From the NCBI GenBank assembly GCA_963848965.1, contig CAWKFG010000004.1:352001-416000 (forward strand): a stretch of DNA of 64,000 nucleotides, given 5' to 3'. Under the pieces are notes generated by a model. It was not told where the DNA came from and ran no database searches. It saw nothing but the letters and a program-made list of their open reading frames with translations. Both the position numbers and the translations under genes were made by a program. This document shows, one piece after another, positions 6,127-55,979 of this stretch (position 1 is its first letter; every line of letters begins with the position of its first letter). This stretch comes from an uncultured bacterium. Lineage in GTDB: Bacteria; Babelota; Babeliae; Babelales; Babelaceae.

Positions 6127-9100
6127 TTATTTTTTACAGGCATCCTTATGACGTGTCCACTGTTTAATTTGGCACTCTATTGAACAATAGTATACTTTTT
6201 GACAATAGGTACATGGATAAAGTGTTTTATCTTTTGCTTTACACGATTGACATATATGCTCGTAGACAGTTACGTGTTTCTTTTGCTGTGCCTGAAACAT
6301 ATGCGCTATGATATCTTTGTAGTTTTTTCTTACCGCTATCTTTAAAGCAGTATCACCATTAAAGTCTTCAAACTTAACATCAGCACCAGCAGCAATAAGC
6401 ATTAACGCAATATCCTTATATCCTTTGTAGAGCGCTTTCATTAAAGCTGTTTCGCCGCAGGCATTTTGGATGTTAACATGCGCACCAAGTAATAAAAGAA
6501 GGTTCACCATATTTTTATCCCCTCTTTCTACAGCATGTATTAAAGGAGCATTACCTTCATTGTCTTGCATATCACCTTGAGCACCATGAGCTAAAAGCAG
6601 TTTTACTGCTTCACAATTACCCTTAGATGCTGCCAAGTTTAAAGGTGTAAGTCCATGTACATCGCACACATTAACTTGAGCACCTTTTTCTAGCAATAAT
6701 TTTACTATCTCATGATAGCCTCTCTGTACTGCTTTTATCAAAGGCGTTTGTTCATATCCATTGCGAACGTTAATCTGCGCTCCTGATTCTAAGAAGTGGA
6801 TTACGCGCTGTCTATCATTTCTATGTACTGCAAGAAAAAGCTCTTCTGCAAGATTTTTTTCCTTTTCTTGACTACCTAGTTTAGCTTGAATGAATTCTAT
6901 TATTTCTTCTTTGTTATCACCATCTGCAAGATCTAGGGCAGTTTTATTTTGGTTATTCTTGATAGTAACATCAGCACCATACTTATTAATAAGCATCACA
7001 ACCAACATTATATTTCCTTGTAATGCAGCATAATGTAAAGCAGTATTACCACTACCATCTTGCTTATTAACAGGTTCACCTTGAGCTACAAGTAGTTGAA
7101 TCATAAGAATACATTCTTTTTGTACTGCTCTAATCAAGGCGTTCGGATCTTTAACGGTAATACGTGCGCCATGATTCATAAGAAGCTTTGCTACGTCATT
7201 ATGACCATGAGAAAGAGCAAACTCTACAGCTGTTTCTCCTTGACGTGTAAGTGCATTAACATGAGCACCCGCTTTTATAAGCGCCTCTACCATAGGGATG
7301 TCTCTGTATTCTACTGCTTTAATGAGAGCAGTCTCCCCATGCTGATCTTGCATATCAACAGGTATTCCTGATTTTAGCAACGCAAGTACTTGTTGGATAT
7401 TTCCGGTTTTTGCCGCACTTATAAACTCATTACACAGCTTCTGATATGCTTCCTTATCCTTGTGCCCTTGCTCGAGGAGTGCAATTATGTCGCCATTGTT
7501 CATTCTTTCTGCTCTTTGCAGGGCAGTTACACCATCATTATCTTGCATAGTAACATCTGCTCTTGCGCTTAAAAGCATATTTACTATATCTTTATGGTCC
7601 TGTTCTACCGCTTTCATTAATGCAGTTTCACCACAAGCATTTTGAATGTTAACTTGTACACCATGCCTTATAAGTAACTCTACTATATTTGTATACCCTT
7701 TATCTGCAGCAATGAGTAAAGGGGTATCTCCTTTTGTGTCCTGGTTATTCATGCCAACTTGTTTACCTAAGAGCTGAGTCACTTGGGCCAAGCTTCCATT
7801 GCTTACAGCAGCAAAAAGCTTATTACTTAATTTTGAAGACTTTAGAGCCTTCTGTTGAGCTTCGTCTCTCTTTTTTACATTCTGAAGCATAAGAGCTGCC
7901 AATACCTTATTATTTTCCTGTAGAGCTCTTTGAAAAGCTGTTTTTCCACTAGCATCTTTCATAGTAGTATTAGCAGATGCAGCTATAAGTAACGCTCCTA
8001 TCTCTTTAAAATTTTTACTTGCTGCTTTCATTAAAGCTGTTTCACCATTGGTATTTTGCATATTAACATGTGCACCATGCTCTATAAGCACTTTTACGAG
8101 TTCAGTGTATCCCTTCTCTGCAGCAATAATTAAAGGAGTATTACCCCACTTATCTCGAGCATTGACATGAGCACCTTGACGCAAAAGAAGTGTCGCTATA
8201 TTTTTGTTACCATAAAGCATTGCATCCATCAAAGGAGTAGCCCCTTTTACATCTTTAGCATCAATAACTACATTATACTGCAAAAGCAATTTAACAATAT
8301 CTTCTTTATCACTACGTACAGCCCAATGTAAAACAGTACATTTGCCTTCATCCCTTACTGCAAGCAAGTCTTCTCTCATAACCTCTCTACTTATAGAATC
8401 CTGAGGATAGAAAGCCGGATCTAAAAGTATTTCTACTAAGCTTTTATAACCATTTGCTGCCGCAATCATTAAAGCTGTACAACCAGTACAAAGATCTCTA
8501 TCACAAACATTTGCCTTTCGCTTTAAAATATTTATTACCTGTTCATTAAGACCTTTCTGTGTCGCAAGCAGAAGTAGTGAATATCCATCTTCATTTTTCT
8601 TGTTAATATCGACACCTTCAAAAAAGAGCTGAACCGCAACTTCTACAAACCCCTTATTTAAAGCAAATGCAAATGCTGTCTTACCTGCACTATTTACAAT
8701 AGTCCTATCTGCACCTTTTGATAAAAGTAGGGTCACCGCTTGCTCATTGCCTCGCAATACAGCATGATGTAGAGCAGTATTACCTTGATTATCTTGAGCA
8801 TTAATCTCAGCACCTCTTTCTATAAGAAACTGTAGCACACCGATATTACCTATTTGTGCTGCAAGTATCAAAATAGTAATACCTTGAGCATATTGAATAG
8901 TGATATCAGCATGATTATTTATAAGAAGCATCATACCTTGCTGATTATTAGTTAATAGAGTAATAGCAAGAGCAGTCATTCCTTTCATATCTCGCATATC
9001 AATATGAGCACCCTTATTGAGTAATAGCTGCAACATCCCATTATCTTTTCTTTGTGCAGCAGCTATTAAAGCAGTAGTACCAGCAATAGTTTGCGCATTA

Positions 9101-9531
9101 ATATAACTATCATGAATAAGAATATCTGGCGCTAAAAGCCTACTTACTATATTTTTTTGTCCTGCAGAAACAGCAGCCAACAAAGCATTTTCTCCGCTCT
9201 CATTTTTTCTATAAACATTTGCATCAAAAGATAAAAGGAGGTCTACTACTTCTAGATGGCCATTACGAGCGGCTACTATCAAAGGGGTATCTCCTTTACT
9301 ATCCTGCTCGTTAATGTCAGCCCAGTTTGCAATAAGCGCTTTGACCTGAGATGCATTACCATCTTGAGCTGCTTTGATAAGCTCTCTTCTATGTAAGCGA
9401 GGACGAGACACAGGTCTAGGACTCTTTGAAGAATTTTCCTGTTCCTCTTGCTTGTGCTCTTTTTCCATTGAAAATGAATATGATGTGAATAAAGAAAAGA
9501 AGAAAAGTAAAATATAATAATAGTTCATCAC
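6127..9531 (-). CDS. Secreted large ankyrin-repeat protein with C-terminal MYND zinc finger
   Basis: Signal peptide; more than 20 G-T(P/A)L ankyrin repeats; C-terminal CQSC...CTYCQKVYYCSIECQIKQWTRHKDAC. Confidence 0.93.
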   Translation of the reverse strand: MMNYYYILLFFFSLFTSYSFSMEKEHKQEEQENSSKSPRPVSRPRLHRRELIKAAQDGNASQVKALIANWADINEQDSKGDTPLIVAARNGHLEVVDLLLSFDANVYRKNESGENALLAAVSAGQKNIVSRLLAPDILIHDSYINAQTIAGTTALIAAAQRKDNGMLQLLLNKGAHIDMRDMKGMTALAITLLTNNQQGMMLLINNHADITIQYAQGITILILAAQIGNIGVLQFLIERGAEINAQDNQGNTALHHAVLRGNEQAVTLLLSKGADRTIVNSAGKTAFAFALNKGFVEVAVQLFFEGVDINKKNEDGYSLLLLATQKGLNEQVINILKRKANVCDRDLCTGCTALMIAAANGYKSLVEILLDPAFYPQDSISREVMREDLLAVRDEGKCTVLHWAVRSDKEDIVKLLLQYNVVIDAKDVKGATPLMDAMLYGNKNIATLLLRQGAHVNARDKWGNTPLIIAAEKGYTELVKVLIEHGAHVNMQNTNGETALMKAASKNFKEIGALLIAASANTTMKDASGKTAFQRALQENNKVLAALMLQNVKKRDEAQQKALKSSKLSNKLFAAVSNGSLAQVTQLLGKQVGMNNQDTKGDTPLLIAADKGYTNIVELLIRHGVQVNIQNACGETALMKAVEQDHKDIVNMLLSARADVTMQDNDGVTALQRAERMNNGDIIALLEQGHKDKEAYQKLCNEFISAAKTGNIQQVLALLKSGIPVDMQDQHGETALIKAVEYRDIPMVEALIKAGAHVNALTRQGETAVEFALSHGHNDVAKLLMNHGARITVKDPNALIRAVQKECILMIQLLVAQGEPVNKQDGSGNTALHYAALQGNIMLVVMLINKYGADVTIKNNQNKTALDLADGDNKEEIIEFIQAKLGSQEKEKNLAEELFLAVHRNDRQRVIHFLESGAQINVRNGYEQTPLIKAVQRGYHEIVKLLLEKGAQVNVCDVHGLTPLNLAASKGNCEAVKLLLAHGAQGDMQDNEGNAPLIHAVERGDKNMVNLLLLLGAHVNIQNACGETALMKALYKGYKDIALMLIAAGADVKFEDFNGDTALKIAVRKNYKDIIAHMFQAQQKKHVTVYEHICQSCKAKDKTLYPCTYCQKVYYCSIECQIKQWTRHKDACKK

Positions 9532-20201: not shown

Positions 20202-21275
20202 ATGAAAAAAATAATAATTATAGTTCTTTTAGTAGCATTAGTACATAAAGCACATAGTATGGAAGCACCGACTTTACCTTCTCACTGTAATCCTCAGCCA
20301 CATGTGCTTAAAAGACATGCCCATCTTATTACTGGAGCAGAAGGCTATTTAGTTTATTCAGGAGCCTTGAGCCCTGACGGCAGATATGCCTTAACAGGAT
20401 CTGCAGATCAGACAGCAATAATTTGGGACATAACCAATTTACCTTCTATTAAATCCTATAGATTGCGAAGTTCTAAAGGTTCAGTCCTTTCAGTAGCATT
20501 CAGCCCTGATAATAACTATATTATAACAGGGTTTCATAATGGGACTATACGACTATGGGATATAAGTGACTTAGATACTATTAAAGACAACGATTACTTG
20601 GAGCACAGACTCAAATATTATAATTTTGATGTACCGGAAGGCGGTGTTTACTCCGTAGCAGTAAGTCCTAACGGAAAATATATCTTAGCAGGATCTACCA
20701 GTTCTATTGTTATACTGTGGGATATACGTAATTTAAACAATAGTAAGTTCTATAGTCTCAAAGGCCATTACAATTCTGTCCTTGCAGTAGCATTCAGCCA
20801 TGACGGAAAGAAAGCTATAACCGGTTCTCTTGATAGAACTGCACAGCTATGGGATATTAGTAATCCTGCTAATGCTAAACTTCTTGCCGTTTTACCTCAT
20901 AAAGATGTGGTAACCTCAGTAGCATTTAGTCCTGATGACAAGCAAGTTTTGACAGGGTCTCGAGATAAGATTGCACGCCTTTGGAATATACAAGACCTTA
21001 ACAATATCACATCTTATCCTCTTGAAGGCCACAAACATACAATAAGTTCTGTAACATTTAGTCCTCGCGGAACTTACGCTCTAACAGGATCTTATGATGG
21101 TACTGTAAAAATATGGAAAATAAGCGCCTTATCTGCTCTGGAACCATATTCTTTGGAAGTACCTGATAGAAGACCAATTCATTCAATCGCATTAAGCTCT
21201 AGTGGGCACTATATCCTAGTAGGGTTGGGAAGCGGTAGAGCAGTGCTCTGGGATTTACAATGTAATCTTCAGTAG
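20202..21275 (+). CDS. Secreted WD40 beta-propeller protein (about 7 repeats)
   Basis: Repeated GH...V.SVAFSPDG...TGS.D.T..LWD; AAGGAG RBS; signal peptide. Confidence 0.95.
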   Translation: MKKIIIIVLLVALVHKAHSMEAPTLPSHCNPQPHVLKRHAHLITGAEGYLVYSGALSPDGRYALTGSADQTAIIWDITNLPSIKSYRLRSSKGSVLSVAFSPDNNYIITGFHNGTIRLWDISDLDTIKDNDYLEHRLKYYNFDVPEGGVYSVAVSPNGKYILAGSTSSIVILWDIRNLNNSKFYSLKGHYNSVLAVAFSHDGKKAITGSLDRTAQLWDISNPANAKLLAVLPHKDVVTSVAFSPDDKQVLTGSRDKIARLWNIQDLNNITSYPLEGHKHTISSVTFSPRGTYALTGSYDGTVKIWKISALSALEPYSLEVPDRRPIHSIALSSSGHYILVGLGSGRAVLWDLQCNLQ

Positions 21276-23407: not shown

Positions 23408-23430
23408 AAGCAGCCCGTTATGGGCTGCTT
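23408..23430. terminator. Hairpin between convergent genes
   Basis: aagcagccc-gttat-gggctgctt. Confidence 0.7.
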
Positions 23431-25061
23431 TACATAAAGTACCCACTACCTACTACAAATCTTTTTACTTCACCATTCTCAAGAGCTTTTTCTATTGGTT
23501 TTGCATAAACACGGCGCATAGCATTATGTATTCTGTACTCAACCCAACCACCACCTCGAGAGGCAGCTGCAATAACATTACTAATCACTGTTCTGCCTTC
23601 TTGATCTGCATTGCTCATAAAATTACGCCATGTCTGTTCAGTTTGTATACCATTAACTAAACGAGTTCCTCTGATATCATAGACAAACATATGAAGATCT
23701 CCTCGATAGAATTCGCTTCCTTGAGTAGAAAATAAACGAAATGCCTCTGGGGTAGTTTTTTCACGAATAGTCTCTAGTGCTCTATTGACCAGTGCTTGTG
23801 TAGATTGAATCTTAGAATCTGGATAGTACATAGCAGTTACAACAAAATTGCCCTCAGGAAGATCTACTCTTTCAACATACGCTATAGCACGTGTATTATA
23901 ATCCTGTAATGCTACAAGCCCTTTACCATATTTACGCGCAGTTCTAATTATATCGCGTACATAAAACTTGCCTAACCCATCAGTTACATTACTAAGATTT
24001 TGTCCTACAAAGCTTGGATTCTCTCCACTAGCTACACAGATACCGGCAAAATCGAAAACCGTTACACCAAGGCCTCCTCGAGCAAATTTACCTACTTGAT
24101 TTGAAAACTCTCCAAATGCCTCTTGTGTACCATGAGTTTTTATGTATCTTATAGCTTTTCTTACGTATTGTTGCACCACTGATAAGGTAATATTTGGATA
24201 ATATCCTGCTGCAATCAAATAGGGCGTTTTTGTCTTAGGATCAACCACACGCTCTACATACGATCGCTTAAATTCATTGCGCCAATAATAATCAACCCAG
24301 CCCTTTCCTTTTGTACGAGCAATTCTAATCAGCTCCTTAATTAAAGGCTTTCCCTGCGAGTCCACTTGATCAATAAGGTTCTGACCAACAAGAGCAGCAT
24401 TCTGTCCATGAGCTACAACTACTCCGTTAAAATCATAAGCAAATGTATAAATATCACCTCTAACAAAAGGCCCTTTAGGATTATTAATAAGAGCAAATGC
24501 AGCTTCTTTTCCATTTTGATTAAAATAAGCAACTGCTGTTTTGACAATACGCTTGGTAACAAATTCATCAGCTATAGGATAAAAACCAGAACCTATAATA
24601 TAGGTTATTCCGTTTTTAACGACCTTTTGAATATACGCAGATTTATAAGCATTATCCCAAAGAAAACTTATACTTCCAGCCGATTTTCTTATAGTAAGCA
24701 ACTCTTGAATAAGAGGAACTCCTGCGGTACCTTTTATACCAGAGATATTTTTCCAAATAAGATGGGTATCATCTCCATGCGCTAAACAAATGCCATTTTG
24801 ATTAAAAACAAATACAAAGAGTTCTCCTTTACGCCAGCGTGAACCATGTACAAAGTCATTGCACGCAACTTCAAGAGAAGACCTTAAAAAATGGCGTGCT
24901 GCATTACGAGTCAACTGTTTAATTTCTCGGTACTTACGATTAATATCTGGCTCAAGTTGCGGATTAAGCTCTATATCATCCATAGCAGATCTATCAAACT
25001 CTTGAGCCCACACTCTTCCTATTACTAGCATTGCCATAAGGAAAAAGGCACCTATTCTCAT
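23430..25061 (-). CDS. Exported protein made of four tandem single-Cache (sCache_2-like) domains
   Basis: Signal peptide VWA-QE; four repeats of A..F....F..G..(Y/F/M).F.(Y/F)D..G...AHG.N...G.N...D..G...GW.Y...GxY. Confidence 0.85.
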   Translation of the reverse strand: MRIGAFFLMAMLVIGRVWAQEFDRSAMDDIELNPQLEPDINRKYREIKQLTRNAARHFLRSSLEVACNDFVHGSRWRKGELFVFVFNQNGICLAHGDDTHLIWKNISGIKGTAGVPLIQELLTIRKSAGSISFLWDNAYKSAYIQKVVKNGITYIIGSGFYPIADEFVTKRIVKTAVAYFNQNGKEAAFALINNPKGPFVRGDIYTFAYDFNGVVVAHGQNAALVGQNLIDQVDSQGKPLIKELIRIARTKGKGWVDYYWRNEFKRSYVERVVDPKTKTPYLIAAGYYPNITLSVVQQYVRKAIRYIKTHGTQEAFGEFSNQVGKFARGGLGVTVFDFAGICVASGENPSFVGQNLSNVTDGLGKFYVRDIIRTARKYGKGLVALQDYNTRAIAYVERVDLPEGNFVVTAMYYPDSKIQSTQALVNRALETIREKTTPEAFRLFSTQGSEFYRGDLHMFVYDIRGTRLVNGIQTEQTWRNFMSNADQEGRTVISNVIAAASRGGGWVEYRIHNAMRRVYAKPIEKALENGEVKRFVVGSGYFM

Positions 25062-33063: not shown

Positions 33064-34632
33064 ATGAAATATTTACCTACTGATGTAAGCACCTTTAGTC
33101 TTATGATTGAAGGCAATTATCTTTACATAGATAAAACAGAGTATATTTATAACCTTTTTAAAGAAGGTGAATCTCGATACTATTTCTTATCTCGACCACG
33201 TCGATTTGGCAAAACGCTGCTTATATCAACGTTAAAGGAACTGTTCTCTGGCAATAAAGAGCTATTTAAAGATCTTTGGATTTATAAAAGTACCTATAGA
33301 TGGGATACCTATCCTGTTATTCACCTTGATTTTTCGACCATGGATTATGCAACTGTTGAAGAACTGAAACTAAGTTTATCATGGACTTTATCACATATTG
33401 CACAAAGCTATGATATTGATATCTCACAAGCACCCACACCAAGCACTAAACTTACCTTATTAGTAGAACAGCTTTCAAAGAAAAATAAAGTAGTAATACT
33501 TATCGATGAATACGATAAGCCTTTATTAGACAATTTAAAAGATTATGAAAAAGCAGAAGCTCAAAGAGATGCTCTCAAATCCTTTTATGGCACTTTAAAA
33601 GGTCTTGATATTTACTTACGAGCTCTTTTCATAACTGGGGTAAGCAAATTTGCAAAAACATCAATATTCTCGGGGATCAACAATCTTAATGATATCAGCC
33701 TTAAACCAGAAGCAGCACAATTATTAGGATATACCGCACATGAAATAAACTATTATTTTAAAGAATACATACTACAATTTACTCGAGATCAACAGAGAAC
33801 TCCTGAAGCAACCATTCACGAGATGCAGAGATGGTATAATGGTTACAGGTTTTCGGAAAATCCTATAAAAGTCTATAACCCTTTTTCAGTACTTTATTAC
33901 TTAAAAGATCATAAGCTAGCAAACTATTGGTTTGAATCTGGAACCCCTTCATTTTTAATTAAACTCTTACAAAAACAATACCAATCACTTGAAGATCTTG
34001 CCTTAGTCGAACTGAGTTCTGATTCTTTAGGAACATTTACTATTGATAACATACCTCTTATTCCTCTTCTCTTTCAAGCAGGTTATCTTACTATTGCTGA
34101 TTATAATTCAGTAACAAGAAAATTTACGCTTAATTATCCTAATCTAGAGGTTGAGGAATCGTTCAAAAAATATCTTGTAGCAGCTCTTGCCTATAGCAAT
34201 CCAGTAACGGTTGATACTATGCTGTCTCGACTGCTTAGTGCTTTACATGCAGAAGATTTCAACACTTTTTGTACTTACTTGCAAAGCCTCTTTGCTCATA
34301 TTCCCTATACACTTCATATACCACGAGAAAGCTATTATCACTCACTATTTCAATTTCTTATGAGTCTTCTTTCTTTAGAAGCAAGTTCGGAAATTTTAAC
34401 CGATAAAGGCAGAATTGACTCAGTTATTTCTACCAAAACTACTATCTATATCTTTAAATTTAAATACAATACCGATCCAGAAAAAGCCCTTAAGCAGATT
34501 CAAGAACAAAAATATTATGAACCATATATAATTAAAGGAAAGCCTATTATAGCCGTTGGGCTTGCTTTTCATGATGAAAAAGAGAAGCTCATTATTAGAT
34601 GGCAATCAAAAGAGTTAGCATTCACGCAATAA
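33064..34632 (+). CDS. AAA-ATPase-like protein with C-terminal PD-(D/E)XK nuclease domain
   Basis: YIDKT, SRPRRFGKT, LIDEYDKP, WYNGY, YNPFS, YWFESGTP, GRID...IFKFK. Confidence 0.92.
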   Translation: MKYLPTDVSTFSLMIEGNYLYIDKTEYIYNLFKEGESRYYFLSRPRRFGKTLLISTLKELFSGNKELFKDLWIYKSTYRWDTYPVIHLDFSTMDYATVEELKLSLSWTLSHIAQSYDIDISQAPTPSTKLTLLVEQLSKKNKVVILIDEYDKPLLDNLKDYEKAEAQRDALKSFYGTLKGLDIYLRALFITGVSKFAKTSIFSGINNLNDISLKPEAAQLLGYTAHEINYYFKEYILQFTRDQQRTPEATIHEMQRWYNGYRFSENPIKVYNPFSVLYYLKDHKLANYWFESGTPSFLIKLLQKQYQSLEDLALVELSSDSLGTFTIDNIPLIPLLFQAGYLTIADYNSVTRKFTLNYPNLEVEESFKKYLVAALAYSNPVTVDTMLSRLLSALHAEDFNTFCTYLQSLFAHIPYTLHIPRESYYHSLFQFLMSLLSLEASSEILTDKGRIDSVISTKTTIYIFKFKYNTDPEKALKQIQEQKYYEPYIIKGKPIIAVGLAFHDEKEKLIIRWQSKELAFTQ

Positions 34633-35782
34633 ATTCTTTATAAGGTACAGCAAGAATTTGATCTCTACGCTCTAAAATATCTATGAAAAATTCTGGCGTA
34701 CAAGAATCCAATCCTTCTTTGAGAGCATCTTCATAAATCATACTTAGTACTTCATAAGTAAGTTGTGTATACTTCTCAAGAGTGGATTTTGAATAAATAT
34801 TTGTAAAGTTAATACGTGGCTTTAGAGTATTATCAGGATTTTCGGAAGAGCTCTTATAAAATTGAATCCATAAAGCATTATGCCACAAAACGATAGGCAA
34901 CTGCGAAATACCTAGATTGTTCCAACCTTGGACAAATCTTATAGGAACGGTATACTCTTTTCCTTTAAGTCGCTTACTTGAGCATTCCAGCGTATCTAAA
35001 GATACCATAGGTGACTCTGATAATTTTCTTTTACGGGATTCACTTTCTGATACTAACTCACCTCTCTTTATCTCTATACACACGGGAAGTGTTATCCAAA
35101 ACTCTTCTTCAAAAGGGAATGTTCCTTTATAAGAAAAGTGAGGCTCAAAACCAATCTGACGAATAAAAGAATGGTACCCATACCGTGTCTTACTCCAGGT
35201 TATTATTGCAGCGTTATCAATAAGCGCCAGCTTTGCTCTCCCCTTATGGTAAGCAATAATTTGGTTTCCTGCATGGTTATCCCATTGACCAAAAATGAAA
35301 TAAAATAAGTACATATCACTTTTTTCTTTTTCAGAAAGCAGAGTAAATGCAGTTTTGTTGTGCCGTGATTTTAAAAGGTCAAAAGGTGATTCTACAAAAA
35401 ATTGAAGGCTTCCTCGCTTTCCTTGATACTCTCTTAACACCGTAGGCGGTACTAAGCGCTGCCCTAGCCAGATGCTCGCTTTATATGCAGCAATCTCACC
35501 ATAAGAAAATCGTAACTCATCTTCAGGCTTAAAAACAGCTTTAAGACCGTTTGCAAGTGTAGCAAGATAGACCTTTTTAGTGTAATGTGCTTTTTTATTT
35601 TGTTCGCTTAAATATTCTCTCATATCTTTAAGCGCTACAATAGGCTGAGTTCTCAGTTGTTCTTCAATGCTCTTAAGGTCTAAAGTATCGTCCCATAACG
35701 GTTGTACTCTATCAGGAGCTTCCATACCATATGCCAAAGAGAGAGTACCTAGTATACTGATAAAAGAGAGACATCTTATCAT
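34622..35782 (-). CDS. Secreted atypical kinase, PI4K-II/FAM20-like, catalytic motifs intact (array copy 4)
   Basis: AVFKP, YGEIAAY, LVPPT, GSLQFFVE, GQWDNHAGN, LIDNA. Confidence 0.8.
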   Translation of the reverse strand: MIRCLSFISILGTLSLAYGMEAPDRVQPLWDDTLDLKSIEEQLRTQPIVALKDMREYLSEQNKKAHYTKKVYLATLANGLKAVFKPEDELRFSYGEIAAYKASIWLGQRLVPPTVLREYQGKRGSLQFFVESPFDLLKSRHNKTAFTLLSEKEKSDMYLFYFIFGQWDNHAGNQIIAYHKGRAKLALIDNAAIITWSKTRYGYHSFIRQIGFEPHFSYKGTFPFEEEFWITLPVCIEIKRGELVSESESRKRKLSESPMVSLDTLECSSKRLKGKEYTVPIRFVQGWNNLGISQLPIVLWHNALWIQFYKSSSENPDNTLKPRINFTNIYSKSTLEKYTQLTYEVLSMIYEDALKEGLDSCTPEFFIDILERRDQILAVPYKEFIA

Positions 35783-35891
35783 AGCTTATACCTTTCCTTT
35801 ACACAGTATTACAGGTGACTATCAAAAACAGCTTTAAAGCTATACAGCTCTGTATAAACCAGGATACTACTGTTATAAAAACAAGCAAGAG

Positions 35892-36737
35892 TTATGGTAC
35901 AAGCACTTTGTGCGATGCTGCGAGTATTTGGTTTTTTCGCTCTAAAATATCATTAAAAAAAGCTGGTGTACAATCAGCAACATTATGCGTTAATGCATCT
36001 TCAAATATCCAATGCAAAACATCAAGAGAAAGCTCTTTATACCGCTTGAGTGTCTGTTTTGAATATACAAATGGATACAAGAGCAACGAAGAATCTTTTT
36101 TATTCTTTGCTACTATTTTATTCCACACTATATGTCTCTTTCTCTTTACAAGAGAAGAGCTATCGATGATAGCAGCATGCCCTTTGCCATTTTTATCAAT
36201 TGCTATAAGCTTGTTACCCCAATGAGCAGAGATTCTTCCTCTAAAAACAAAGTAAAAAAGAGCCATATCACTCTTAGTTTTAGCAGAAAGCAACTTTAAA
36301 GCACGCTCTCTATCTTCTTGCTTAAAGAGGTCAAAAGGAGTCTCTACAAAAAATTGTAAACTTCCTCGTTGTCCTTTATAGTCCCGCACTACTGTTGGAG
36401 GCACTAACTGTTGCCCCAGCCACAGACTCGCTCTATATGCAGCGGTTTCTCCGTAGGGCGATTGTTCTTTACTCTCTGGCTTAAAAACAGCCTTAAGACC
36501 ATTTTCGAGTGTCACAAGATACACAGCATGCTGAAAAGAATCCTGTTTCTGATTCTCTTTCAAATATGCTCTCATCTCTTTTGACGAAACTATAGGCTGC
36601 GTTTTTAATTGCCTTTCAATTTCATTTATGTTTAAAGCACTATCCCAAACAGGTTGCTTTGTATAGTTTTCACCATTGACGTAAAACATAGAAAAAGCAA
36701 ATATACTACAGAAAAGCCAAGAACTATAAGAGAGCAT
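35892..36737 (-). CDS. Secreted pseudokinase paralog (array copy 3)
   Basis: AVFKP, YGETAAY and GSLQFFVE retained; catalytic loop is RGRISAHWGN (no Asp); IIDSS. Confidence 0.75.
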   Translation of the reverse strand: MLSYSSWLFCSIFAFSMFYVNGENYTKQPVWDSALNINEIERQLKTQPIVSSKEMRAYLKENQKQDSFQHAVYLVTLENGLKAVFKPESKEQSPYGETAAYRASLWLGQQLVPPTVVRDYKGQRGSLQFFVETPFDLFKQEDRERALKLLSAKTKSDMALFYFVFRGRISAHWGNKLIAIDKNGKGHAAIIDSSSLVKRKRHIVWNKIVAKNKKDSSLLLYPFVYSKQTLKRYKELSLDVLHWIFEDALTHNVADCTPAFFNDILERKNQILAASHKVLVP

Positions 36738-36767
36738 ACTATTTCCTTTCGTAATAAAGATGTGTTC

Positions 36768-37619
36768 TTAAGGTACAAGTTTTTTATGTGGAACCGCAAG
36801 CATGTAGTCTCTTCCTTTTAGAAGAGCAGCAAAAAATTCTGGTGTACAAGAGGGAACTTTGTCTTTAAGCGCATCAATAAAAATTTCTTGAAGCACTTCA
36901 AGAGAAAGCGCTTTATAACGTTTAAGAGTAGCTTTTGAGTAAACAGAAGGCCATTCACTCTCTAGCTTTCTTGTTTGCAGCACAGGTGGCATCTGCCTTA
37001 AATGCTGTGTCATAATAGAAGCATTATCAATCAATGCAAGATGCGCTTTACCATCTTTGCCAAGAGCTACAAGTTGGTTACCAGAGTGCGATCCTTTATG
37101 TTTAAAAATACAACCAAAAAGCTGTGCATCACTTAACACTTTAGGCGATAACATACGAAAAGCCTTTTTTTCGTGTTTTGGATTTACAAGATCAAAGGGA
37201 GATTCTACAAAAAATTGGAGACTGCCTTTTATACCTTTATGCTCTCTTAATACTACAGGAGGAACTAAGCGTTGCCCAAGCCAGAGACTTGCCCTATAGG
37301 CAGCAAGCTCTCCATAGTGATAATTTTTTGGGCCACCTGGCTTAAACACTGCTTTTAAGCCATTTGCAAGCAGAGCAACATATACCTTATTGTGAAACTT
37401 TGCTTCTTTTCCTTGTTTTTTTAAATATTTACTCATGCTCGTAAGCCTAGCAATAGGCTGTGATGCTAAGTGCTTTTCTATCACAGCAAAATCAAGCGTA
37501 TTATCCCAGAGAGGCTGTTTTACGTAATGCTTCTGATCACTTGTAGCATATACAGAAGCACACATAAGAAAATATAAGTAAAAGTGTTGTCTTATAAGCA
37601 TAGTACTTCTTTTCAACAT
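36768..37619 (-). CDS. Secreted pseudokinase paralog (array copy 2)
   Basis: AVFKP, YGELAAY, GSLQFFVE and LIDNA retained; catalytic loop is KHKGSHSGN (Asp replaced by Gly). Confidence 0.75.
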   Translation of the reverse strand: MLKRSTMLIRQHFYLYFLMCASVYATSDQKHYVKQPLWDNTLDFAVIEKHLASQPIARLTSMSKYLKKQGKEAKFHNKVYVALLANGLKAVFKPGGPKNYHYGELAAYRASLWLGQRLVPPVVLREHKGIKGSLQFFVESPFDLVNPKHEKKAFRMLSPKVLSDAQLFGCIFKHKGSHSGNQLVALGKDGKAHLALIDNASIMTQHLRQMPPVLQTRKLESEWPSVYSKATLKRYKALSLEVLQEIFIDALKDKVPSCTPEFFAALLKGRDYMLAVPHKKLVP

Positions 37620-37646
37620 GAATTAACCTTTCAATGAGTAGTCTTC

Positions 37647-38798
37647 TTATTTAAGAAGAGCAAGTAATTGGTCTCTTCGTTTTAGTATGCTACTAAAGAA
37701 ATGAGCACTACAATAACGAGTATGGCTCTTTATTGCCTCTTCAAACATCCAATGTAAAGCTTTAAGAGAAAGCTTTTTGTATCGCTTTAAGCTTTCAGGT
37801 GAATGGATATGAACTTGAGAAATAGAGATACCCTTATGCACTCTACTTAGCACATCGCAGGAATTCCAGTCATATTGAACCCATAAGCTATTTTTCCACA
37901 TTACAACTGGCAAATGCGTTACATTGAGGGTATTCCAGTATAAAATATAATCGAGTGGAACAACATAGTGGGCTTCCTTATTAGTAAACTTTTTATAAGC
38001 ACATAGTTCATTAAGACATAATCCAACATTTTTACGATGTTGCTGCAATAAGACAGTACCATTCTTCTCATCTTGCCCAAGGGCAATAGGAAGAGAGATG
38101 TAAAAGACTTCATTAAACGGAAAAGGTTCATTATATAAATCATCATCACCGTATGCAATTTCCTGAATAAAAGGAGGTTCGCCACTACGCACTCGTGCTG
38201 GTACAATAAAAGCAGCATTATCAATAAGCGCTAAATATGCTTTTCCATCTTTATCAAGAGATACAAGTTGATTTCCTGGATGCGGATCCCATTGCCCAAA
38301 AATATAATAAAAAATTTGCCTATCACTCTTAGTCTGCTCTGATAGAAGGCTGAAAGCATGATCTCTTTCGCTATCTTTTAAAAGATCAAAAGGAGATTCT
38401 ACAAAGAACTGGAGACTTCCTCTCATTTTTTTATGCGTTTTAAGCACAGTGGGGGGAACAAGACGCAATCGAAGCCATTGACTTGCTCTATAAGCTGCTA
38501 CTTCCCCATAAGCTTTAAAAAGGCGTCCAGCTTCTGGCTTAAAAACTGCTTTTAAGCCATTTGCAAGTGTAGCAACATATACTTTAGTTTTATAAAAAAC
38601 GACTCTTCCTTTTTCTTTTAAATAATCTTTCATCTCTTTTAATTCAACAATAGGCTCTTTACGTAATTGTTCTTCAATACCAGCAAAATCAAGGTGATCA
38701 TCCCAGACTGGCTGCTTCGTATGTGTAACGCCTTTAATACCATAAGTGCAAAGAGTAAAAATCATTAACAAAAGGTAGAGAGATCTATAAAAACACAT
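37647..38798 (-). CDS. Secreted atypical kinase, PI4K-II/FAM20-like, catalytic motifs intact (array copy 1)
   Basis: AVFKP, YGEVAAY, GSLQFFVE, GQWDPHPGN, LIDNA. Start placed at ATG 38798 (AGAGG RBS). Confidence 0.8.
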   Translation of the reverse strand: MCFYRSLYLLLMIFTLCTYGIKGVTHTKQPVWDDHLDFAGIEEQLRKEPIVELKEMKDYLKEKGRVVFYKTKVYVATLANGLKAVFKPEAGRLFKAYGEVAAYRASQWLRLRLVPPTVLKTHKKMRGSLQFFVESPFDLLKDSERDHAFSLLSEQTKSDRQIFYYIFGQWDPHPGNQLVSLDKDGKAYLALIDNAAFIVPARVRSGEPPFIQEIAYGDDDLYNEPFPFNEVFYISLPIALGQDEKNGTVLLQQHRKNVGLCLNELCAYKKFTNKEAHYVVPLDYILYWNTLNVTHLPVVMWKNSLWVQYDWNSCDVLSRVHKGISISQVHIHSPESLKRYKKLSLKALHWMFEEAIKSHTRYCSAHFFSSILKRRDQLLALLK

Positions 38799-38899: not shown

Positions 38900-39175
38900 A
38901 TGAAGAGAAAACTTTCGCTTACTCTCTTTGTGGGCATTCAGCTCTTCTTTGTCTTCTTCTACATTTATGATCAAAGTCAAAAAATTCAATTATCTTATCA
39001 AAAGCAGAAATATGAAAAACTCAAAGTAGAACTCCTTGATAAACGGCAAACATTAAAACAGGCATTACATGCAACTCATAATCTTACAGCAATTAAAGCG
39101 TTTGCCATAAACTCGAACATGCACAAAGTAAAACTTCACCAAATAAAGACGTTAAATCATGAATGTACAGCATAA
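38900..39175 (+). CDS. FtsL-like cell division protein
   Basis: Small bitopic protein (TM plus coiled coil) overlapping the start of ftsI. Confidence 0.6.
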   Translation: MKRKLSLTLFVGIQLFFVFFYIYDQSQKIQLSYQKQKYEKLKVELLDKRQTLKQALHATHNLTAIKAFAINSNMHKVKLHQIKTLNHECTA

Positions 39176-40796
39176 CAGCCGACTAAGCATTATTTTTATG
39201 TGCTTTATTACACTTTACGTTCTCGTACTCTTTAATCTTTATATTTTGCAGATCAGAAAGTCGGGCTTTTATAAAACATTGGGAAACCAACAATACCATG
39301 TAACTGTTACTATTATGCCTCCTCGTGCAGAGGTTTATGATCGTACTGGGATACAACCTCTTGCTATGAACAAAGAAAGCCTTTCTGCTTTTATTATGCC
39401 TTCACGACTTGAACATGTTAAAGCAGTTAAAACATTTTTAGCGCGCCATTTTCCGCTTGCTCATGAACGTCTTAAAAAAAGTAAGCATCTTCACTTTATG
39501 TACATCAAACGACGATTGAGCCCAGAACAATTGACAGCAATTGAAAAAAGCGGCCTTACTGATATTAAACTTTTAAAAGAACCAAGTCGCTTTTATCCTA
39601 TTCCCTCTGTAGGGCCTCTTGTAGGTATTACAGACATTGATAACCACGGCATGTTTGGTATTGAGTTGCTCTACAATACACAGCTTTCAGGAAAACCTTC
39701 TACCTATCTTTTACAAAAAGACTGTCGGTCCGGTCACTTTTATTTTAAAAGGGAAACAAAAGTACAAGGAGCACAAGGAGAACCAGTTACTCTTTCAATA
39801 GATAGCGTCCTACAATTTCTTGCATATGAAGAACTTAAGGAAACTGTTGAGCAATTAGGCTCTCAAGAAGGATCTGTGCTTATTACTAATCCAGATACCG
39901 GCGAAATTATTGTAATGGCTCACTATCCTGATTTTAATCCTAATGAAACCGAACAACTTGATGTAGCTCATACAAAAAATCGTAGTATTACCGATGCCTA
40001 TGAACTAGGTTCTGTCATAAAAGCATTTCTTGCCCTTGCTGCACTCGAAGAAAAGGTTGTCTCTCCAAATGAATATATTGATTGTGAAAATAAAACAGTT
40101 GCAACTTTAGAAGGCATTAAGTTTTCTACATGGAAAGCACATGGCGTTATTCCATTTTCTGAAGTTATTCAGTTTTCTAACAACGTTGGTGTTGCAAAAG
40201 TAGCACAGCGAGTAGGGACAAAACTCTATGACCATTATAGAAAGTTAGGATTCGGACAAAAAATTGGTATATTTCCTGGTGAAAATAAAGGATTTATTAA
40301 CCCTCCAACCCAATGGTCTAAAGCATCTTTAATTTCTCTTTCCTTTGGTTACGAAATAAGCGCTACATTAGTACAACTTGCTCAAGCATTAAGCATCATT
40401 GCAAATGATGGTTACTTGATTCGTCCTCGTCTTCTTAAAATAGGAGATAATGAAGTAATTCAAAAAGAAGGACCACTATATAGTAAAGAGGCTATCACAC
40501 AAATGAAAGAGATATTGCACAAAACAATTACTGAAGGAGCCGCAAAAAAAGCGAACATTCAAGGATACGATATTATGGGTAAAACAGGAACAGCACGCTT
40601 ACTTACTAATGGTACCTACGACCCTAACCGTCATATCTTTACCTTTATGGCAATTGTACAGAAAGGAACATACAAACGTATTGTTATAACATTCTTAAAA
40701 GAAACAACGAAAAAGGGACTTTTAGCATCGAGCATTGCAGCTCCCCTTTTTGAAAAAATTGCTCATAAAATGCTTATCCATGACAAAATAGTATAG
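39159..40796 (+). CDS. ftsI: Class B penicillin-binding protein (PBP3)
   Basis: RAEVYDRTG, RFYP, GIE, SVIK (SxxK), SNN, KTGT. Confidence 0.88.
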   Translation: MNVQHNSRLSIIFMCFITLYVLVLFNLYILQIRKSGFYKTLGNQQYHVTVTIMPPRAEVYDRTGIQPLAMNKESLSAFIMPSRLEHVKAVKTFLARHFPLAHERLKKSKHLHFMYIKRRLSPEQLTAIEKSGLTDIKLLKEPSRFYPIPSVGPLVGITDIDNHGMFGIELLYNTQLSGKPSTYLLQKDCRSGHFYFKRETKVQGAQGEPVTLSIDSVLQFLAYEELKETVEQLGSQEGSVLITNPDTGEIIVMAHYPDFNPNETEQLDVAHTKNRSITDAYELGSVIKAFLALAALEEKVVSPNEYIDCENKTVATLEGIKFSTWKAHGVIPFSEVIQFSNNVGVAKVAQRVGTKLYDHYRKLGFGQKIGIFPGENKGFINPPTQWSKASLISLSFGYEISATLVQLAQALSIIANDGYLIRPRLLKIGDNEVIQKEGPLYSKEAITQMKEILHKTITEGAAKKANIQGYDIMGKTGTARLLTNGTYDPNRHIFTFMAIVQKGTYKRIVITFLKETTKKGLLASSIAAPLFEKIAHKMLIHDKIV

Positions 40797-54578: not shown

Positions 54579-55979
54579 TTACTTAATAATTTTACCTTCT
54601 TTAACGAGCTCTGTATTCTTTTTACCAACATAGAATGCTGCTAGGAGCCAAGCTCCTATAAGACCAAAGCCAAAAAAAGAGCCATAAGTCATAAGGTCTT
54701 GTGCGCTATGTTTAAACGTATTTGTCACTTGTGCTCCCGCCGATTTTGCAAAGCGACTTCCAAAAGTATCAATCCAGCCTTTAGATTTAAACTTAGCATC
54801 TTTGCTGGTTGGTATATACATCATCTCTTTTGTAGGATTATTAACTGCATAGCCTATACTCTTAATAAGTACCATAGCTGCAAAAGTTACCCACAATAGT
54901 ATAGTAGGAGTGTACGTTCCTAATTGGAAATACCCCAAGAGAGCCCCGAGTGTAATTGCAAAAGCAACCGGATAGATAAGAAGGCTTACACGAACACCAA
55001 AACGCTTAATGATATAGCTTGTGCCAAGTAATGCTATAAGTAATGAAATAACATTAATACTTACGCCGTACCACGCTTGAAACTGAGCAAAGGCAACATC
55101 ACTTACGTAAGTTGGCGACATACAAGCTTGTGTGTACATCTGATATTCTATAATCTGAGCAATCGCTTCATACACGGTAGAGACAACGAGCACTCCAAGC
55201 AAGTAAGGCCGTGTTACCAAAAGCGTAAAACCAGAGATAAACCCTTGTAGAAAGCCCTCTTTTTCCTTCTCAGTTGCCGTTGCTTCTTTATTACCTATAA
55301 GCTGTTCCGGGGGTATAACATGCATAAAATAACGAACAGAAGGAATTACAGCAAAAACAAAAAAACTTGCAAGCAATAGAATAGGCCATAATGTTCCAAT
55401 ATAAGGAGAAAAAAGCAACGTAGCAGAACCTGCAACTGCACCCAGTTGAGCCATTGCTACAATAAAGGGAAATCCTCTTTTAGCAGCCTCAGAAGTAGTT
55501 ATACTGTTAGTAAACGACCAAAAAAGCGTTACAATAAGAGATCCAAAGCTTTCTATAGCAAAATAGCTTATCCATCCTGCTAGTGCTAGAGATAACTTCC
55601 CTACTGCTTGAACTCCAAGCCAATCCTTTGCAAGTAATACTCCAGCTGTTCCTGCAAATATAAGTCCATACAGCGTACATAGCACATAAAATAGCTGATG
55701 TTTCTTAAATATATCAACCAACTTTGAATACACCAGTACCAAAATAAGTACCACAAACGGAGACCAGAACTTAGCAACAGGTTGTAATAAACGGCCTTGA
55801 TCTGGCAACCATCCTAAACTTTCTGGAAACGCTACTTTCAAGAAAATAGTATTCTTCAGTAAGCGTAAGAGCCAGTAAGTGCCAATAATAAGAAAAAATA
55901 TAAAGGAAAGTAAACTGAATTTACGAAGATCTTCGTCTTTAAGATCAGGGTAAAAATACCGTGTAATATGCCCTATCAT
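54579..55979 (-). CDS. Npt1/Npt2 (TLC) family nucleotide transporter, ATP/ADP translocase-like
   Basis: YWLLRLLKN, ESFGSLIVTLFWSF, NNPTKEMMYIPTSKDAKFKSKGWID, RFAKSAG; about 12 TM segments. Confidence 0.9.
   Translation of the reverse strand: MIGHITRYFYPDLKDEDLRKFSLLSFIFFLIIGTYWLLRLLKNTIFLKVAFPESLGWLPDQGRLLQPVAKFWSPFVVLILVLVYSKLVDIFKKHQLFYVLCTLYGLIFAGTAGVLLAKDWLGVQAVGKLSLALAGWISYFAIESFGSLIVTLFWSFTNSITTSEAAKRGFPFIVAMAQLGAVAGSATLLFSPYIGTLWPILLLASFFVFAVIPSVRYFMHVIPPEQLIGNKEATATEKEKEGFLQGFISGFTLLVTRPYLLGVLVVSTVYEAIAQIIEYQMYTQACMSPTYVSDVAFAQFQAWYGVSINVISLLIALLGTSYIIKRFGVRVSLLIYPVAFAITLGALLGYFQLGTYTPTILLWVTFAAMVLIKSIGYAVNNPTKEMMYIPTSKDAKFKSKGWIDTFGSRFAKSAGAQVTNTFKHSAQDLMTYGSFFGFGLIGAWLLAAFYVGKKNTELVKEGKIIK

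Follow-up and report, generated by a model that had tools for sequence, protein, structure and literature searches.

Predicted kinases and pseudokinases of PI4K-II/FAM20-type fold in a tandem array of a Babelota genome

What is to be made of a bacterial gene array in which four kinase-like paralogs stand side by side and the inner two lack the catalytic aspartate that the outer two retain? The question is raised by genes K1 to K4 in a 64,000-nucleotide stretch of DNA (the window) from an uncultured bacterium of the Babelaceae, phylum Babelota (GenBank assembly GCA_963848965.1, contig CAWKFG010000004.1, positions 352,001 to 416,000). An original prediction, made from the sequence alone, described four co-oriented paralogs with gaps of 27–109 bp, ordered active, pseudo, pseudo, active. 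The open reading frames (ORFs) bear this out: all four genes have the same orientation, with gaps of 109 bp (K1-K2), 30 bp (K2-K3) and 27 bp (K3-K4), and the motif states agree with the predicted order, the catalytic Asp being found in K1 and K4 only. Local identities of 45–59% among the four, with E down to 1e-110, are far beyond chance. Their alignment holds all of the motifs quoted beforehand, namely the common QP(L/V)WD, NGLKAVFKP, YGExAAY, LVPP, GSLQFFVE(S/T)PFDL and (L/I)ID, the outer GQWD(N/P)HxGN and the inner altered loops. Based on the collective evidence, the array is real, and the fold and pseudokinase calls stand, with conservation and recurrence both adding support to them; a functional module and its substrate are treated as hypotheses.

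Models of mature K1 and K3 (pLDDT 91.9 and 92.1), compared with 48,161 chains, predict for K1–K4 the PI4K-II/FAM20-type kinase fold that had been proposed. Best structural match of both is the type II phosphatidylinositol (PI) 4-kinase PI4KIIα (PDB 4pla/4hnd), with Z 16.7 for K1 (rmsd 3.1, 220 residues aligned) and Z 17.2 for K3 (rmsd 3.4, 227 aligned), at 14–18% identity in the structural alignments. FAM20 proteins reach Z 14.9–15.1 and 15.8–16.4, respectively, and CtkA 12.1 and 13.2; PI4KIIα and FAM20 rank first for both models, well above unrelated chains. LepB and AnkK were not among the 50 fold matches listed, from which a lack of kinship does not follow. With the K3 model, Foldseek places FAM20C/A on top (best FAM20C, E 3e-8). 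A family profile searched against PDB has FAM20A (E 8e-5) and FAM20C as its sole matches at E < 0.01, aligning the family GQWD with FAM20 GNMD, so that the WD Asp falls on the DRH Asp, and IDN with LDN. Searches of Pfam and PDB with single sequences gave nothing meaningful, and K1–K4 have no Pfam match.

Given that PI4KIIα and FAM20 are the top structure matches and FAM20 leads in Foldseek and profile searches, the family sits between PI4K-II and FAM20. It belongs to neither, because the PI4KIIα insertions are missing, the FAM20 Mn-binding Glu is not conserved and the loop Asn is kept. Its GSxQxFVE hinge resembles the PI4KII hinge motif. As PI4KIIα is described in passages of PMC3974213 (Lys152, loop 308-315, Asp346), the family has the same order of Lys, catalytic loop and metal Asp; according to the same passages, PI4KIIα has three insertions, of which I1 serves as membrane anchor and lines the PI pocket. 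I1 (palmitoylated CCPCC) and I2 (RK-rich) are missing in the family, where the corresponding spacings are 11 and 13 residues, and no CCPCC-like motif occurs in 239 family proteins. Further differences from PI4KII are a segment of ~97 residues after the DN motif, a signal-like N-terminus and the rarity of Arg after the catalytic Asp (19 of 234). FAM20C, FAM20B and FAM20A are secretory-pathway proteins that comprise active and pseudo paralogs (PMC7948968), and the present family likewise mixes both states. However, the FAM20 Mn-binding Glu (PMC7948968), placed five residues ahead of the Glu of helix C, occurs in 40 of 234 members and not in K1–K4, and the FAM20 loop ends in HHYE (DRHHYE), the family loop in Asn kept at Asp+5. 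FAM20A is dead via a Glu-to-Gln change with its DRH Asp intact, whereas K2 and K3 lost the Asp itself. CtkA (Helicobacter), HipA/HipT, CotH, actin-fragmin kinase and Legionella MavQ belong to the same atypical-kinase clan (Z 9–13); the CtkA/HipA group has clearly lower Z than PI4KII/FAM20 and no PDB sequence match, and the array lacks a toxin-antitoxin context. A His two residues after the Asp, found in 100 of 234 members, we take to resemble the HipA loop. Four Legionella kinase families cluster with FAM20/CotH in the excerpted account of PMC9758233. A shared fold does not determine the substrate.

The catalytic states were read from 239 homologous proteins, 238 of them covering the catalytic loop, with some motif counts taken over 234. 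The ATP Lys is kept in 232 of the 238, the helix-C Glu in 232, the catalytic Asp in 227, the loop Asn in 237 and the metal Asp in 236. All five are present in K1 and K4. The Asp is absent from K2 and K3, and neither altered loop holds Asp or Glu; both proteins keep Lys, Glu, loop Asn and metal Asp, as do all 11 Asp-less proteins, with DN changed to DS in K2 and retained in K3. By a sequence definition, K3 (modelled and matched) and, by homology, K2 are thus classed as pseudokinases. The motif series invoked originally contained DRxxxN, of which K1 and K4 keep the Asp and the Asn; the Arg is absent, their loops reading D-N and D-P. Of 39 strongly conserved columns, K1 keeps 39, K4 38, K2 28 and K3 26, the losses in K2 and K3 falling mostly in the catalytic loop and a deleted segment. 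That segment, which follows the DN motif and had been described as a ~100-residue extra of the outer copies, is indeed present there, but it is no extra. With a family median of 97 residues it is the norm, shortened in K2 and K3 (28 and 24) and longer in K1 and K4 (136 and 134), and it looks ancestral. The retention of ATP-binding Lys and Glu in open inner frames, also claimed, is confirmed. Asp loss and segment loss are separable: the Asp is still present in 15 of the 21 short forms and missing from five long ones. Equating the short form with a pseudokinase is rejected on the same count. Asp-less short forms are strongly basic, with a median isoelectric point (pI) of 9.84, but intact short forms are likewise basic (9.63); the median of long intact forms is 8.24.

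Are the inner copies retained or merely lingering? In a tree of the family, P0002, P0008, P0006 and P0004 pair one-to-one with K1, K2, K3 and K4; each of their records gives a longest contig of 30,847 bases, which suggests that they lie on one contig. Mature proteins are identical to their orthologs at 266/356 positions (75%) for K1, 201/251 (80%) for K2, 184/246 (75%) for K3 and 251/349 (72%) for K4. Differences avoid the columns that are conserved in other homologs: K2 differs at 3 of 75 conserved columns compared to 46 of 137 others (p 2e-7) and K3 at 11 of 74 compared to 46 of 134 (p 0.003), as is likewise seen for K1 (8/87 vs 59/179) and K4 (11/86 vs 67/176). The altered 13-residue loops of K2 and K3 are the same between orthologs, for which chance alone would give ~0.055 and ~0.024 at mean identity. 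The evidence supports that K2 and K3 are maintained under constraint rather than decaying, as judged at the protein level from one ortholog pair each; neutral evolution of the inner copies had been named beforehand as an outcome that would refute the prediction.

Loss of the Asp recurs. A tree of 53 rows, built with the loop columns excluded, combined three L058 proteins with 50 of the 239, chosen so as to take in every one of the 11 Asp-less proteins and their neighbours. Explaining the 12 Asp-less rows of this tree takes 6 changes, of which well-supported branches force at least 4, and a single origin is rejected (p-AU 6e-51); by this reconstruction, Asp loss arose several times. Co-location was counted over 120 homologs listed, with the same contig inferred from equal contig size; the counts concern related sequences, not independent trials, and leave the Asp-less P0136, P0156 and P0179 outside. 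Among the matches listed, all 8 Asp-less proteins with contig data are co-located with an intact copy, compared to 9 of 112 intact proteins; an Asp-less copy is held by 6 of 7 multi-copy contigs and by 0 of 66 single-copy contigs of at least 4.5 kb. An independent array in another family of the order, read directly in the DNA (L058:1294-4484 (-)), consists of three copies in tandem, two with the Asp (loops GQHD and GQWD) and one without (GQWS); it adjoins a gene that by eye resembles an F-box/leucine-rich-repeat protein.

The family is distributed patchily, with local, lineage-specific expansions: it was matched in 25 of 261 genomes of the phylum, including 10 of 10 from one genus of the same family. 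A search with the K1 protein gave 169 homologs; none of the 120 listed has a precomputed Pfam domain, and named ones among the matches listed include Ca. Dependentiae and Alphaproteobacteria. A 97-sequence profile matched 287 representatives at E ≤1e-30 and 924 at 1e-10, of which the best 150 were listed. Against the SCO1664 family (TIGR03843) and bacterial PF00454 proteins there is weak profile kinship: PF00454 matched 5 of 97 homologs (best E 0.0023, short of the curated cut-off) and TIGR03843 matched 74 of 75 members (best E 2.4e-7), K3 scoring 18.9 bits over ~50 residues where the family cut-off is 172.4 bits. The SCO1664 family has DRKxGH, unlike the K1–K4 family with WDxxxxN, signal-like N-termini and a post-DN subdomain. 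The nearest Atlas cluster is a 'hypothetical protein', and in the set after it 38% of the members have PF00454. No account of this kinase family was found in a literature search that covered few subscription papers; supplementary kinase tables (PMC9758233, KINtaro database) might include it. The motifs of the distant loci L036-L042 read NxDRKxGH and IDHG. L019-L023 form a divergent subfamily with GQYDR loops, the R after Asp being nearer to PI4K/FAM20; they come from family f11 (4 of its 10 genomes) and from one genome of f8. Two family copies, L017 (G026:C5:44346-45346) and G030:C2:1305810-1306317, are interrupted by a stop codon or a change of frame; the family is thus not free of true gene decay or of assembly errors.

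Table 1. Features of the K1–K4 array, in window coordinates (aa, amino acids; activity states are predictions from sequence)
Feature	Position (strand)	Size or sequence	Remarks
K1	34622-35782 (-)	386 aa, long form	Predicted active kinase; Lys85, Glu96, Asp168, Asn173 and Asp189 all present
K1 catalytic loop	35264-35290 (-)	GQWDNHAGN	Asp codon 35279-35281
K1 post-DN segment	34799-35206 (-)	Residues 193-328	Beta-rich subdomain in model
K2	35892-36737 (-)	281 aa, short form	Predicted pseudokinase
K2 altered catalytic loop	36213-36245 (-)	FRGRISAHWGN	Same in ortholog P0008
K3	36768-37619 (-)	283 aa, short form	Predicted pseudokinase
K3 altered catalytic loop	37077-37106 (-)	FKHKGSHSGN	Same in ortholog P0006
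K4	37647-38798 (-)	383 aa, long form	Predicted active kinase
K4 catalytic loop	38271-38297 (-)	GQWDPHPGN	Asp codon 38286-38288

With all four genes on the minus strand (Table 1), transcription would run K4, K3, K2, K1, and K4 is likely the first gene of an operon. A purine-rich Shine-Dalgarno-like motif precedes each start; the K4 frame extends to 38837 (396 residues), and the ATG at 38798 has the better such motif. Composition gives no hint of recent foreign origin, the array having 0.36–0.38 GC like the genome, and no further family copy was found by tblastn or family profile in the 1.73-Mb genome (37% GC, 89% complete). One sequencing run contains two pieces of 151 bases that match the window exactly, and no RNA data set was listed as holding the sequence, which has no bearing on expression. 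Head-to-head with K4, ~100 bp away, lies a 91-residue membrane/coiled-coil ORF followed by a penicillin-binding protein gene (38900-40796 (+)); the ORF is FtsL-like by position and shape and lacks a Pfam match. The kinase array and these likely cell-division genes thus have a short divergent intergenic region in common. On the other side, a gene for an AAA-ATPase-like plus PD-(D/E)XK nuclease protein (33064-34632 (+)) has an 11-bp convergent overlap with the 3' end of K1.

The wider genome, likely that of a protist parasite, fits published descriptions of Dependentiae in being small and of 37% GC and in having ankyrin proteins, ATP/ADP translocases and three secretin matches. In passages of PMC4776705, Dependentiae are parasites of protists that have translocases and parts of a type II secretion system with duplicated gspD, and an excerpt of PMC6561590 gives 44% of proteins with signal peptides. 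The secretin-domain genes are neighbours with unusually long frames of 796–1153 residues (G000:C4:767163-774663). A TLC-family ATP/ADP translocase is encoded in the window (54579-55979 (-)), with more matches on contig C1 at 278658-281556. Ankyrin-repeat proteins make up 10 of 46 window proteins scanned, among them one of 1134 residues with a C-terminal MYND zinc finger of eukaryote type (6127-9531 (-), E 7.5e-9). The window also encodes a WD40 beta-propeller protein of eukaryote-like fold (20202-21275 (+)) and a 543-residue protein of three Cache-type sensor domains in which no signalling output domain was detected (23430-25061 (-)). Regarding export of the kinases themselves, K1–K4 all pass a heuristic of N-terminal hydrophobicity, at 2.08–2.91 against a cut-off of 2.0, and a hydrophobic N-terminus is found in 182 of 212 homologs compared to 43 of 1195 internal windows.

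The reading that we favour, with a probability of roughly 0.47, is that K1 and K4 are likely active kinases and that the conserved pseudokinases K2 and K3, which have no Asp, are likely exported together with them and likely serve as their non-catalytic partners. It is preferred because of the PI4K-II/FAM20 fold, the residue conservation in the family, the constraint on K2 and K3, the repeated Asp loss beside intact copies and the export-route matches. To proceed in this way, the four genes would be expressed as a single transcript from K4 to K1, and the proteins would be exported by Sec via their N-terminal signal peptides and released by a secretin (type II-like) channel, or by vesicles, into a compartment of the protist host where ATP would be present. 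In K1 and K4, Lys85/Glu96 and Asp189/Asn173 are predicted to hold Mg/Mn-ATP, with Asp168 as catalytic base. K2 and K3, having retained Lys, Glu, Asn and the metal Asp, may bind nucleotide without phosphate transfer, and through their basic replacement loops and a protein pI near 9.7 they may bind an anionic target or membrane. They could thus position or tune K1 and K4, in analogy to FAM20A for FAM20C and ROP5 for ROP18. Toxoplasma ROP5/ROP18 are secreted, lineage-expanded kinases of an intracellular parasite in which the pseudokinase assists the active kinase, as passages of PMC3682881 describe; being eukaryotic-type kinases of a eukaryotic parasite, they resemble the array by analogy only. 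For FAM20A/C, binding of the pseudo to the active protein is proven; for the array it is proposed. As substrate we would place a host protein at ~45%, a phosphoinositide or other lipid at ~35% and a glycan or small molecule at ~20%.

Several observations weigh against this reading. The signal peptides claimed originally pass the heuristic, but they are weak evidence for a module, and the same is true of the tandem arrangement, real as it is. Of 1187 long ORFs of the genome, 716 (60%) satisfy the N-terminal criterion applied to K1–K4, and tandem paralogs form 59 clusters, 8 of which comprise at least four genes; an array of this format is thus nothing unusual here. Two seven-gene clusters with mostly signal-like N-termini are seen at G000:C1:234096-241863, where several members have near-identical leaders, and G000:C4:304020-316582. 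The unusual part of the array is its catalytic pattern together with the conservation of that pattern. Neither FHIPEP (type III export gate) nor VirB4 was matched in the 89% complete genome, hence delivery to the host cytosol is not evident. A promoter/terminator scan gave 12 promoter-like sites against 15.0 expected and 2 terminator-like sites against 3.1, both at chance level. The evidence for constraint is of the protein rather than the dN/dS kind. Most family members appear to work without a pseudo partner, given that 66 of 73 contigs of at least 4.5 kb hold one listed copy, all intact; tandem pairs with both Asps intact also exist (L002/L027, L004, L056). Co-location is equally expected from duplication followed by functional change, with no contact needed, and no common partner-binding motif is visible because the altered loops differ among lineages. 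In the main competing explanation, K2 and K3 would be selected pseudokinases acting independently of K1 and K4, as ligand- or membrane-binding effectors or substrate traps, adjacent only through tandem duplication of a kind routine for exported proteins here. Ortholog conservation fits it equally, and the missing post-DN subdomain, basic loops unlike each other and the many partnerless active members suit it well. It is nevertheless considered less likely than the favoured reading, as no solitary Asp-less copy is found in the 66 single-copy contigs (among the matches listed) or the GTDB loci examined, and intact short forms do occur apart from long forms (L025, L026, L029).

Kinase folds are also known to serve other chemistry, SelO and SidJ transferring another group. 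K2 and K3 could still be enzymes, through ATP hydrolysis, base-free transfer or transfer of a non-phosphate group, the last being within the reach of kinase folds (PMC7948968). The four retained residues of the Asp-less proteins and the invariance of the altered loops between orthologs agree with such activity, which we nonetheless consider improbable: neither loop has an acidic residue, and no common new residue appears in the replacement loops across the independent losses. Somewhat less probable still is a role in the periplasm or envelope of the bacterium, on a glycan, lipid or envelope protein, such that the host is never reached. FAM20B is a glycan kinase, the signals seen are of Sec type only, no injection system was matched, and the array faces the FtsL-like and penicillin-binding protein genes. 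However, the periplasm generally lacks ATP, and the patchy, lineage-expanded distribution better fits host-directed proteins than housekeeping. That K2 and K3 are decaying duplicates on their way to pseudogenes is very unlikely. Each has lost the Asp and ~110 residues, and K3 has a longer terminal branch than its ortholog (0.22 vs 0.09) and has lost a conserved Arg; yet the frames stay open despite 20–25% amino-acid divergence, identity equals or exceeds that of the active copies, substitutions follow a constrained pattern, the loops are the same between orthologs, the K3 model is confident and compact, and a Shine-Dalgarno-like motif stands before each start.

Lastly, much of the proteome of Dependentiae/Babelota is exported, and in passages of PMC6561590, from which the word "kinase" is absent, their host-manipulating proteins are for the most part ankyrin repeats, proteases and unknowns. 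What K1–K4 and their homologs add is a defined family of predicted enzymes whose catalytic residues can be put to the test and, by sequence, a recurrent bacterial kinase-pseudokinase pairing in a family that has neither Pfam nor NCBIfam membership. A broader and less certain extension would be that undescribed, Sec-exported FAM20/PI4K-II-like kinases of protist endoparasites repeatedly spawned adjacent Asp-less pseudokinases, and that the heteromeric complexes regulate host membrane or protein phosphorylation, in convergence on FAM20A/FAM20C and ROP5/ROP18. Bacterial pseudokinases are experimentally largely unexplored, according to an excerpt of PMC12599244. Natural changes from kinase to pseudokinase, several of them independent and all within a compact PI4K-II/FAM20-like core, would be useful for understanding why pseudokinases arise beside active paralogs and what a minimal PI4K-II/FAM20 ancestor may have phosphorylated.

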